From positions 1-11,953 of the IMG/VR virus record IMGVR_UViG_2563366976_000008: DNA of 11,953 nucleotides, one strand, 5' to 3'. The first letter of the stretch is position 1, and the number at the start of each line of letters is the position of its first letter. Origin of the DNA: a virus (lineage: Duplodnaviria; Heunggongvirae; Uroviricota; Caudoviricetes). A program made the position numbers. Positions 9,001 to 11,953 of the stretch are shown here, piece by piece.

Positions 9001-11953
9001 GTTATCACTTCTGCTCTCATTGCTGGTTTGCGCTTGCATTGCAAGACCACTCGTGAGGGGGTTGGCCTGTGTAGCTTGTCGGAGCTGATCGCCTCCTGAC
9101 TTTGCAGATTTGCACGACGAGCTCTACGGCGAGAAGCTGCGGTTCCTTTAAATTCTGTTTTTCTGGACATAGATTCCTCCCGAATAAACTTTGGCGATGC
9201 AATCTCGAAGCCCCTCCTGAGACGGTTGCTTCGGCATTGCATCCCACAGCTTATGTGGTTGGGTGATCTGGCTTTTCAGCCACGTAGTCGAGTGTTCGAC
9301 GTTGTTTAAAGAGCCTGCCAATCTTTTCCGTTTGGCTACCAGCGTCCTGCTGATGGAAATAATAGTCACATATTGTGATTTAATGGTCAATCACAAAATG
9401 TGTAAAATAAGGGTGTGACACGTTATGTGTATGATTTTTTTGTGTAAATAGTTTTCCCCGCGATGGGTTTGCTTACTTAAGGCGGGGGAAACAGCAGGAT
9501 GGTGTGCTGAAAAGTTCGAAAAACGAGCGAAGTAGGTGGTGACGAGATGGCGGGATATGGGAGTTGTATTAAGAATTATAGTAATTTAATCAGAGGCTTG
9601 GGCTGGCTGGCAGGTGCTGTCCTGATAGTTATGTGCAGGCAACAAAAAACCCGGGGCGGTTCAGGTTGTCTCATTTTTTAGTTTGCTTTGGATTCGGTTT
9701 GTCTCTTCTTCCAATTATAAACACGCTAGTTAAAGCAACTAACTCAGCACCAAGAAGCCCGGTAGCCCAGCCATAAGCCTCGTGCTGAATCATCTTGTAA
9801 GCAATTCCTGCGAAAACAAAGACAGAAGTCATCGCAAAGATCTGTCCGAGTCGATCTCGCCAAATTGCTCCCCTCTGTCCTGCTTTGTAATACTCGTGTC
9901 TGTGTTTTTGCTCAGCCTTAGCCATGTCCATTATTTCGCGAGCGAATCCTGGAGATATTCTTTCGTACTTAGCTAATTCGTCAGCGTCTGGGAGTGGCCC
10001 TGATCTAGTGTGAGTCACCTGCATCATGATGCCAGCTAGATCTGGCCTGTCCATGAGGCGCTCAAGAACTTGAGGGTTCTTTGCGACCTCATTTATAAGC
10101 AGTTCGGTTTTACCGTCTTGAACTCGCCCTAACGGAGTTGGTTGGTTAACAAGATTTCTCGGTGCGGCGGTTTGAAGCTTTCTTTGGGATTTTTTTCTGC
10201 TCATTATCAGTTACAGCGTCTCTAACGTAACTACCTACCTTAACCCAATCTGAGTTGATAAGGTCGATGTCTGTAGCATTTGAATGATACTCGCTGTAGC
10301 TACCTGCTGGGCAAAGGTCAAGGATAGAGCCCATAGCGCTGAAAAAGTGCTTTGCAGATTTTTTCATGTGGGGTGTCCTATATGTTGTTTACTCTAATTT
10401 GAGTAATTGAAGTTTACGCAAAACCTAGCTTTCAGCAAGCAATACAGCACAAAAAATCATGTAAATTTGCGTCTATTTTTATCTACCGGAAAAATGCTCA
10501 ACAACTTTAGAGAAAAAATAGCAATACCAAATCAAACCAATTGCTGCTTCGCCTCTACCCAAACGTCTCTTCAGGCCACTGAGCCTTAACTACCTTGCCT
10601 ATGATGCGGCATGTGTGATCGCAGTCCAGGGTTCTGTATGCCGGATTCAATGGAACCAAGTAACTAACCCCTGCATCCTTCTCATACTTCTTGAACGTTG
10701 CCTCTGAATCACCATTTGCAGAAGCCACGCAGAAATCCCCAGACTCTACCGGCTCGGCCGGATCAACGAGTATCAGCATACCCTCAGGAAAACTCGGCCT
10801 TACGCCCTGTGGCGCAGTCATAGAATGGCCTTTCACCTCAAGCCAGAAAGCTTTTTCGCTGGCTTTTGTGGTCGTTGGGACCCATGCCTTTGCATCGCTT
10901 GCTGTGTAGCTTCCAACCTCCGAAAACGGCCCGGCCTGCACTGAAGAAAATAACGGGTACTCATATTGGCGAAATACAGCGTCTGAATCCTCGCCAAACA
11001 TTATTTTTGCCGGAGATACGCCGAGTGCCGCCCCAAGAACCAGCGCGTCATCCGCGCTAACCTTTCTTGTTCCTAACTCGTAGTTCCCCAGGCGTGAAGG
11101 CGCAGCCCAGCCGCAAAGCTTGGCCAATTGAGCCTGGCTAAGTCCTTTAGCTTCTCTAAGGGACTTGATCCTTTCCCCGATAATTTCATGCATCGTTTTC
11201 ATCCTTTAAATGTAACACGCAACGTGATTGAACTCTGTACACGAATTGAGGTTGACTGTTAATCACAAATTGTGTGTAATGGGTGTGTGATTAATACTAG
11301 GGAGACCGCAATGAACAAAATTGCCCAGCAGCGAAAAAAAATCGGAGTTTCGCAAGCTGTACTGGCTTCGGCAATTGGTTGGGGGCAATCCCGCATCGCC
11401 AACTATGAGCTGAATATCCGTACTCCTAGACTTAACGATTGCCGAAAGATCGTAGAAGGCCTCAGGAAGTTAGGGTGCCAATGTTCTTTGGATGATGTTT
11501 TCCCTCCATCCAGTAACAAAGCCGCCTAAGCAGTACCCGCTCTTTGTAACAACGGACATTCGTCCTACGTCGCTGAAAAGCGAGTCCCAAGATATCTGAC
11601 CAACTAAGGCCATATGCGTTTCCACGCATACCTTTCAACTAACTATTCACTATTGGAAATCTTAAGAAATGGAAAGAACAAGTTACAGCAAACTATCACA
11701 GCGTGACGTTGATCGCGCTGAAACAGATTTACTTATCAACCTGTCAACGCTTACTCAGCGCGGTCTGGCAAAGATGATTTGAACCGCCCCGGGAATCCTG
11801 GAGACTAAACTTCCTGAGAAAGAGGTAAACAGGATGACTAAAAATACTCGTTTTTCCCCTGAAGTCCGTCAACGGGCAGTCCGTATGGTTCTGGAAAGTC
11901 AGGGCGAATATGACTCACAATGGGCGACAATTTGTTCCATTGCTCCAAAGATT

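Follow-up and report, generated by a model that had tools for sequence, protein, structure and literature searches.

The 11,953-nucleotide (nt) stretch of DNA analyzed here, referred to as the window (IMG/VR record IMGVR_UViG_2563366976_000008, positions 1 to 11,953), is the part of a lambdoid Escherichia coli prophage that holds the early-left genes and the immunity region. Behind its cI repressor gene lie two overlapping genes, which encode a small protein of 73 amino acids (aa) and a 177-aa membrane protein of family DUF2335. We show that the small gene, the DUF2335 gene, and the terminator after them form a conserved operon, downstream of and co-oriented with cI, which moves between prophages as a unit. 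The best reading of this operon, to which we give a probability of about 0.4, is a toxin-antitoxin-like prophage module expressed in the lysogen, in which DUF2335 would be a membrane toxin and the small protein its neutralizer, acting in exclusion, abortive infection, or prophage retention. An earlier note on this DNA had suggested a sensor and an effector of abortive infection; the comparative evidence given below favors a small neutralizer and a membrane toxin instead.

The mobility of the cassette was revealed by comparison with other prophages. It is about 99% identical in E. coli prophages with other cI alleles, and blastn against two records (L001 and L011) aligned window positions 9632/9637 to 10581 at 98.9% identity. 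By these sharp boundaries, the cassette starts 26 nt before the end of cI and stops shortly after the terminator, and the earlier description of a discrete cassette is thus borne out. Of 5426 complete E. coli genomes, about 21 contain it at an identity of at least 95%, and the repressors that it follows are of no fewer than seven types. The cI allele of the window is shared by VT1-Sakai and mEpX1 (95 to 96% nucleotide identity; the CI protein of VT1-Sakai is nearly identical), as is its flank on the side of the left operator (OL), but other two-gene cassettes lie in between (compared slots: window 9404–10554, VT1-Sakai L032 2744–3738, mEpX1 L033 972–2380). The VT1-Sakai slot encodes a 93-aa protein and H0053 (183 aa, with a C-terminal hydrophobic tail), for which no family match was found, while that of mEpX1 holds gp42-gp41, assigned by PADLOC profiles to the candidate system PDC-M63 (PDC-M63A/B). 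The presence of three different two-gene cassettes behind one cI allele supports the view that accessory cargo is exchanged at the cI-OL slot.

This slot corresponds to the one that lambda fills with rexA-rexB, as indicated by the upstream, co-oriented cI, the operator-like palindromes at OL and at the right operator (OR), and the N gene (Table 1). The placement given in the earlier note therefore stands, with the terminator as a further landmark. At the site equivalent to the terminator-like hairpin of the window, stronger GC hairpins with T-runs were found in two enterobacterial relatives (L006 and L007) and in all IMG/VR loci, and the depositors of VT1-Sakai labeled its homologous site "putative rho-independent terminator for pRM transcript." The hairpin at 9640–9667 marks the predicted end of the cI-cassette transcription unit and the left mosaic boundary of the cassette. 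Only a weak AT-rich hairpin was read from the sequence after cI, and read-through from the cI promoters into the cassette is plausible. In addition, a putative promoter element precedes the small gene. It is kept in the window, L037–L042, and L049/L007 amid diverging intergenic DNA; a consensus promoter scan did not call it. Just downstream of its putative −10 box are palindromes of 5 to 6 bp (window 10385–10410, with equivalents in L038–L042 and L049), which fall by group into the types TTACTC...GAGTAA and TCAAC...GTTGA, in different registers. They could form a protein-binding site. Their interpretation as an RNA hairpin or operator was rejected, given the two registers, the lack of covariation, and the negligible folding energy.

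The 177-aa protein matched the DUF2335 profile (PF10097) with 63.8 bits (cut-off 25; E 1.4e-17), its residues 72–121 aligning with profile positions 1–50 of 50. It also matched PHROG 3996, a "membrane protein" in the category "moron, auxiliary metabolic gene and host takeover." The protein starts with a basic, variable N terminus (MSRKKSQRK), as the earlier note had described, and continues with a conserved cytoplasmic helical region that holds an SGPLP...PG...EQxHR motif (alignment A3), the DUF2335 motif, two hydrophobic helices (about residues 121–141 and 146–168), and a basic tail. AlphaFold2 predicted a long helix (85–140), which runs into the first hydrophobic segment, and a further helix (144–167). 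This C-terminal hydrophobic pair is the best-modeled part of a structure whose overall predicted local distance difference test score (pLDDT) is low (57). The same layout of the domain followed by two hydrophobic helices was seen in DUF2335 homologs from four phyla, and the membrane component described in the earlier note is borne out. PADLOC and NCBIfam gave no match and Pfam gave DUF2335 alone; a Foldseek search of the model against the PDB returned nothing at E ≤ 0.001, and a PDB sequence-profile search was without meaningful match. In the open literature searched, we found no paper describing DUF2335 and no family description naming a small upstream partner. A "DUF2335 phospholipase" mentioned in two papers on the type VI secretion system was rejected as evidence on PF10097, as it looks like a slip for another DUF; the family meant was presumably DUF2235, the Tle1 family.

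The 73-aa protein had a single PHROG match, to PHROG 26284 (E 1.5e-39, function unknown), and none in Pfam, NCBIfam, or PADLOC. Its acidic core (residues 1–57), predicted to form two helices, carries the motifs AMGSILDLCPxxxY and SDWxxVGxYxRxAV, and its poorly conserved tail (55–73) overlaps the DUF2335 gene. A Kyte-Doolittle plot revealed no hydrophobic segment, which agrees with the soluble protein proposed earlier. The AlphaFold2 model contains helices at residues 3–17 and 31–58 at low confidence (pLDDT 65). Foldseek returned only generic helical hairpins from the PDB and nothing at E ≤ 0.001, and the PDB sequence-profile search again produced no meaningful match. No helix-turn-helix, ribbon-helix-helix, or AbrB domain was detected by hidden Markov model (HMM) search, nor did the model display a recognizable DNA-binding fold. 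Altogether, the HMM and structure searches on both proteins that the earlier note had foreseen placed the larger protein in DUF2335 and yielded no known defense family and no informative fold. Neither protein is RexA or RexB, to judge from Pfam and PADLOC, which gave no Rex match; the note, too, had recognized neither as such. It had not placed the 177-aa protein in its named family, DUF2335; the family of the small protein is unnamed.

The family of the small protein comprises 23 close clusters, nearly all of 73 aa, and at least 81 clusters at E ≤ 1e-3, mostly of 60 to 80 aa, in a profile search of 1.84 billion representatives. A further homolog search with the family alignment (A5) gained few new taxa. 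The consensus from this alignment reads M...FL.G.GS.LDI.P...Y...SD...DW..VG..L..A, and the protein of the window conforms to the family pattern of 55 to 80 aa, the motifs (G/A)xGSxLDIxPxxxY and SDWxxVGxxLxxA, and a location directly upstream of DUF2335. The gene was left out by the Prokaryotic Genome Annotation Pipeline in two E. coli records (L001, 6574–6974; L002, 6573–6922) and is also missing from the deposited annotation of two Klebsiella phages (L003, 3784–3981; L004, 3712–4062), and the family is thus under-represented in annotation. The small ORFs that are annotated upstream of DUF2335 in these two phage genomes (PHROGs 875 and 450) were rejected as partners; they are unrelated neighbors, and the true partners are the unannotated open reading frames (ORFs) overlapping DUF2335. 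Both genes are under purifying selection, with a ratio of nonsynonymous to synonymous substitutions (dN/dS) of about 0.13 for DUF2335 in comparison with L012, and both ORFs were intact in 10 of 10 related loci checked. Judged by the conserved families, the intact relatives, the purifying selection on DUF2335, and the Shine-Dalgarno sequence of the small gene, neither ORF is there by chance, and both are genuine genes. Their strand, extent, and 59-nt overlap are exactly those reported before.

We found a small-family gene directly upstream of every DUF2335 gene examined, at 32 loci from Proteobacteria, Firmicutes, Actinobacteria, and Bacteroidetes; the hosts of the pair also include a cyanobacterium. 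A contig scan with the single protein retrieved only one near-identical locus. The layout downstream of a cI-type repressor is kept in enterobacterial relatives with as little as 47% identity (L007 and the Pectobacterium locus L006), with a small ORF of 74 aa and an overlap of 62 nt, and in IMG/VR the small gene precedes DUF2335 at 16 loci. Look-ups that started from the small protein led to a downstream DUF2335 gene in Salmonella, Proteus, and several uncultured bacteria. More distant phage loci were drawn from a tblastn search with DUF2335, which matched 24 phage records. The small-family ORF lies directly upstream in all of these distant matches and overlaps DUF2335 in all but Alteromonas P24: by 8 nt in a Porphyromonas phage, 11 nt in both Staphylococcus E72 and Arthrobacter Gusanita, 17 nt in Streptococcus Javan433, 29 nt in E. 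coli ZX5, 47 nt in Lacticaseibacillus P2.4, 53 nt in Pseudomonas MD8, and, with the small ORF unannotated, 32 nt in Klebsiella RAH1 and 77 nt in Klebsiella BUCT711. The DUF2335 start annotated in Alteromonas P24, which leaves no overlap, is probably wrong, because the match begins upstream of it. Thus, to judge from these loci, the pair is specific neither to this phage nor to this slot. A contig labeled as a Segatella copri metagenome-assembled genome (L008; JAJXBQ010000280.1, 3518 bases) encodes a DUF2335 protein 100% identical to that of the window and has 88 to 98% nucleotide identity to other parts of this prophage region. The contig is probably a contaminant from binning and not an instance of the cassette in Bacteroidota.

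All overlaps examined equal 2 modulo 3, ranging from 8 to 77 nt at 14 tabulated loci and from 41 to 62 nt at the 16 IMG/VR loci, so that DUF2335 always lies in the +1 frame relative to the small gene. Neither overlaps of 4 nt or 1 nt nor a conserved slippery motif occurred among L003–L007, L014–L020, L024, L027, and L034–L053. The stop codon of the small gene sits within the conserved (V/P)NQP codons of DUF2335. This constant phase could stem from inheritance alone, from a bias that long overlaps generally show toward one phase, or from a device for translational control. The two starts differ in their translation signals, as the homologous small genes have GAGGA or GGAGG at the spacing seen in the window, while DUF2335 starts mostly lack a well-placed Shine-Dalgarno sequence. 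Two short, co-directional, overlapping genes, with a strong and then a poor Shine-Dalgarno sequence and a single terminator, are typical of type II toxin-antitoxin pairs.

Where the pair has decayed, the small gene was the one that persisted. Klebsiella pneumoniae prophages (L025/L026, 5001–5195) have kept the small gene and lost DUF2335, and in cyanobacterial contigs (L029, 4001–4611; L030) the small gene is kept while DUF2335 contains an in-frame stop in one and is deleted in a relative. DUF2335 without the small gene was not seen among the loci examined. An in-frame fusion of the small gene to DUF2335 in L021/L022 (3001–3384) is truncated and probably a pseudogene, and no intact fusion was present among 81 small-family representatives, which fits a need for two separate polypeptides. 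A fusion of another kind was found in the homolog P0065, in which a SocA/Panacea antitoxin domain (PF13274, E 1.3e-21) precedes the small domain; its gene overlaps that of DUF2335 by 8 nt.

The Panacea fusion, the strong Shine-Dalgarno sequence of the small gene against the weak one of DUF2335, and the decay confined to DUF2335 all favor a neutralizer and a membrane toxin over a sensor and an effector. We also counted in favor of a toxin-antitoxin-like module the obligate pairing, the pair's occurrence as an isolated insertion between efp and kdsB, the location at accessory sites, and the other cassettes, PDC-M63 among them, behind the same cI. Pairs in prophages follow cI or the lysis genes or adjoin int or an antirepressor gene, all typical accessory sites, and the logic of these neighborhoods fits defense cargo. 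The C-terminal hairpins of the Arthrobacter (L015, 2375–2884, 24.9 bits) and Pseudomonas (L016, 2381–2896, 18 bits) homologs resemble the holin-X profile Phage_holin_3_6 below its cut-off of 28.4, and this similarity was counted too. Charges are complementary, with an isoelectric point of 4.95 for the small core and of about 10 for the N-terminal domain of DUF2335, which lends weak support.

If this reading is correct, transcripts of the pair in the lysogen would start at the cI promoters and read through, start at its own weak promoter at 10411–10438, or both. The small acidic protein, predicted as two helices, would be translated efficiently from its strong ribosome-binding site, and DUF2335, starting inside the small gene in the +1 frame with a poor ribosome-binding site, would be made in lower amounts. 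The small protein might bind the cytoplasmic N-terminal domain of DUF2335 and hold it inactive until loss or titration of the small protein, through host shut-off, proteolysis, a superinfecting phage product, or loss of the prophage, sets it free. Free DUF2335 would then oligomerize through its C-terminal transmembrane hairpin and depolarize or permeabilize the inner membrane, and the damage would abort the infection or kill prophage-cured cells. Such an action would resemble that of RexAB or of membrane-acting PanAT pairs, carried out by unrelated proteins.

Several observations weigh against this interpretation. Neither protein matched an entry of PADLOC-DB v2.0.0 at E ≤ 0.1, an NCBIfam family, or a known toxin or antitoxin family. 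With no recognizable DNA-binding fold in the small protein, classical antitoxin autoregulation is not evident. Both structure models are of low confidence (pLDDT 65 and 57) and without informative fold matches. Of the two C-terminal helices modeled by AlphaFold2, only the second exceeds 1.6 on the Kyte-Doolittle scale (peak at residue 156), the first being only moderately hydrophobic. The one-sided decay amounts to three loci, and the Panacea fusion to a single cluster on four contigs, with a syntenic relative that lacks the domain. Finally, two phages, Alteromonas P24 and one of Porphyromonas, carry the pair outside any classical accessory site, amid genes that are early or have no assignment.

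A broader proposal, which we put forward tentatively and regard as possible rather than probable, is that the small protein and DUF2335 constitute an unrecognized cross-phylum family of toxin-antitoxin or abortive-infection systems, in which a predicted two-helix neutralizer of about 8 kDa would restrain the toxin, the overlap would set the ratio of the two proteins, and phages would use the system to exclude competitors.

DUF2335 could instead be a nontoxic inner-membrane protein that blocks DNA injection by superinfecting phages, with the small protein as its cytoplasmic assembly or stabilizing partner. Such a role would suit an accessory gene on the lysogen side that, in temperate phages from many hosts, encodes an inner-membrane protein, and it would agree with the host-takeover category of PHROG 3996 and with the nearby SieB-like gene, which indicates that exclusion functions cluster in this region. 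The injection blockers P22 SieA, T4 Imm, and HK97 gp15 are, however, single proteins, whereas DUF2335 always has a cytoplasmic partner. Injection block also leaves unaccounted for the Panacea fusion, the loci that lost DUF2335 but kept the small gene, and the pair that stands alone in a chromosome between efp and kdsB. In addition, the loop predicted to face the periplasm is very short (about 4 to 5 residues). We consider this explanation unlikely.

We likewise hold it to be improbable that the pair is a non-defense module of membrane physiology, be it a holin- or antiholin-like protein through which the phage controls its own induction or lysis, or a factor of lysogenic conversion that alters envelope or stress physiology, with the small protein as regulator. 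In Staphylococcus and Streptococcus phages the pair directly follows the holin and endolysin genes, which together with the sub-threshold holin similarity of two homologs and the early-gene setting in the Alteromonas and Porphyromonas phages speaks for it. In a preprint, an effect of lambda RexA and RexB on the lysis-lysogeny switch is reported (bioRxiv 10.1101/2021.04.19.439022). On the other hand, the window protein has no Phage_holin_3_6 match in Pfam, the genomic position of the pair is highly variable and usually outside the lysis cassette, its copy in the window belongs to the repressor operon and is directed away from the lytic genes, and non-prophage chromosomal contexts occur.

That +1 frameshifting or transcriptional slippage on an A7 run within the overlap (10188–10194) yields a small domain–DUF2335 fusion besides a truncated form can be dismissed as very improbable, since the invariable +1 frame, the run itself, and the decayed fusion in L021/L022 are outweighed by the absence of this or any other slippery motif from L006 and L007, overlaps as short as 8 nt, the conserved ATG and MSRKK-type N terminus of DUF2335 (alignment A3), the truncation of that probable pseudogene, and the lack of an intact fusion in the family.

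As a toxin-antitoxin-like module, the pair invites comparison with several known systems. Lambda encodes the 279-aa DNA-binding RexA followed by the 144-aa RexB with four transmembrane segments. RexAB excludes T4 rII and other phages, and membrane depolarization is its effector step in the classical model. The cassette of the window shares with RexAB the slot and orientation downstream of cI and before OL, the terminator at its end, the number of genes, an inner-membrane component, and, presumably, expression from the repressor operon in lysogens. It differs in that searches of Pfam and PADLOC revealed no sequence relationship to RexA or RexB, and in that a soluble 8-kDa protein is here followed, in a frame overlapping by 59 nt, by a 20-kDa membrane protein with two helices. 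Prophage defense cargo beside a cI-type repressor has reportedly been described in enterobacterial lambdoid and P22-like prophages by Owen et al. in 2021, who are said to have characterized BstA as one large cytoplasmic protein that is accompanied by an anti-BstA DNA element of its own. The present pair has no homology to BstA, and the swapping of cargo in the cI-OL slot is a result of the present analysis. PDC-M63 of mEpX1 shares with our cassette the slot, the cI allele, the flank with OL and terminator, and the number of genes, but its proteins (DUF6932 and a 310-aa protein) are unrelated and neither has a predicted membrane hairpin.

Panacea antitoxins neutralize diverse toxins, including membrane-depolarizing ones, and PanT(E. 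coli) and PanT(B. apis), two toxins that were validated, combine a charged N-terminal region with transmembrane helices at the C terminus and depolarize or permeabilize the membrane (Kurata et al. 2022, PMC8832971). The DUF2335 label appears neither in the text of that article nor in part of its tables, which give accessions only. As read here, our pair is like PanA-PanT in that an antitoxin-like gene precedes a candidate toxin gene and in that one homolog of the small protein has a Panacea domain upstream of DUF2335. It is unlike PanAT in that the small protein of the window lacks this domain (Pfam search), which is confined to the distant homolog P0065. From the antitoxins of type II systems, the small protein differs by the lack of a DNA-binding domain. 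The overlapping exclusion genes olg1/olg2 of Fc02 (PMC9936078) were rejected as a match, as they are nested, belong to a Mu-like phage, and were not represented among the 24 records matched by tblastn.

The features of the window are listed in Table 1. A 149-aa protein with long hydrophobic stretches (PHROG 3054; 7741–8190, minus strand) is encoded next to the SieB-family gene, which suggests that these two genes are further exclusion or accessory cargo in the region. Between OL and the cassette lies a GC-rich inverted repeat, TTTTCCCCGC...GCGGGGGAAA (9455–9490), within a stretch (9400–9660) common to mEpX1 and VT1-Sakai. At the other end of the window, an IS3-family insertion sequence begins at 11781 (TGAACCGCCCCGGG...). 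Among 5426 complete E. coli genomes, 3606 carry the first 173 nt of the element (11781–11953), the median being three copies. The element appears to cut cII after about 36 codons, leaving a fragment at 11671–11781; the interruption is apparent because homology to other prophages ends at 11779. The prophage may therefore be defective in establishing lysogeny.

Table 1. Positions of the cassette, its signals, and the surrounding genes in the window.
Feature	Position	Strand	Assignment or remark
int	1–1074		recombination and early genes next
SieB-like superinfection-exclusion gene	8337–8876	+	PF14163, PHROG 1301; just left of N, opposite strand
N antiterminator gene	8898–9242	−	PF25694
OL operator-like palindromes	9366–9378 (TCACATATTGTGA), 9391–9403 (TCACAAAATGTGT)		motif TCACA-N3-TGTGA; left limit of slot
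Mobile cassette	9632–10581		last 26 nt of cI, intergenic region, both genes, terminator
Intrinsic-terminator-like hairpin and T-run	9640–9667	−	directly after DUF2335 stop; stem 9667–9648, then TTTTGTTG
DUF2335 membrane protein gene	9671–10204	−	177 aa, 20 kDa; PF10097, PHROG 3996
Reading-frame overlap	10146–10204	−	59 nt; DUF2335 in +1 frame relative to small gene
Small partner gene	10146–10367	−	73 aa, 8.2 kDa; ORF; PHROG 26284
Shine-Dalgarno sequence of small gene	10376–10379	−	AGGA, 8 nt upstream of ATG; read from sequence
Putative cassette promoter	10411–10438	−	−35 TTGCTG (10433–10438), 16-nt spacer, −10 TAAACT (10411–10416); 43 nt upstream of small-gene ATG
cI repressor gene	10555–11202	−	215 aa; HTH_3/HTH_31 and Peptidase_S24; upstream of cassette, co-oriented
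OR operator-like palindrome	11263–11275		motif TCACA-N3-TGTGA as at OL; cro after it

Two-gene cassettes are familiar as prophage cargo, and what is new here are the protein families. Nothing about this candidate is unexpected in kind, and many uncharacterized pairs exist that are candidates for defense or toxin-antitoxin functions. If the toxin-antitoxin-like reading is true, it would provide a first function for DUF2335, a widespread Pfam family, and a small-protein family that often goes unannotated would join the defense repertoire. Phages of Gram-negative and Gram-positive hosts would then have in common a membrane-acting toxin-antitoxin or exclusion module, in which the constant +1-frame overlap may be a means of setting the relative translation of the two genes. 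The three phages with one cI allele and three cassettes offer matched backgrounds in which the effects of such cargo can be compared.

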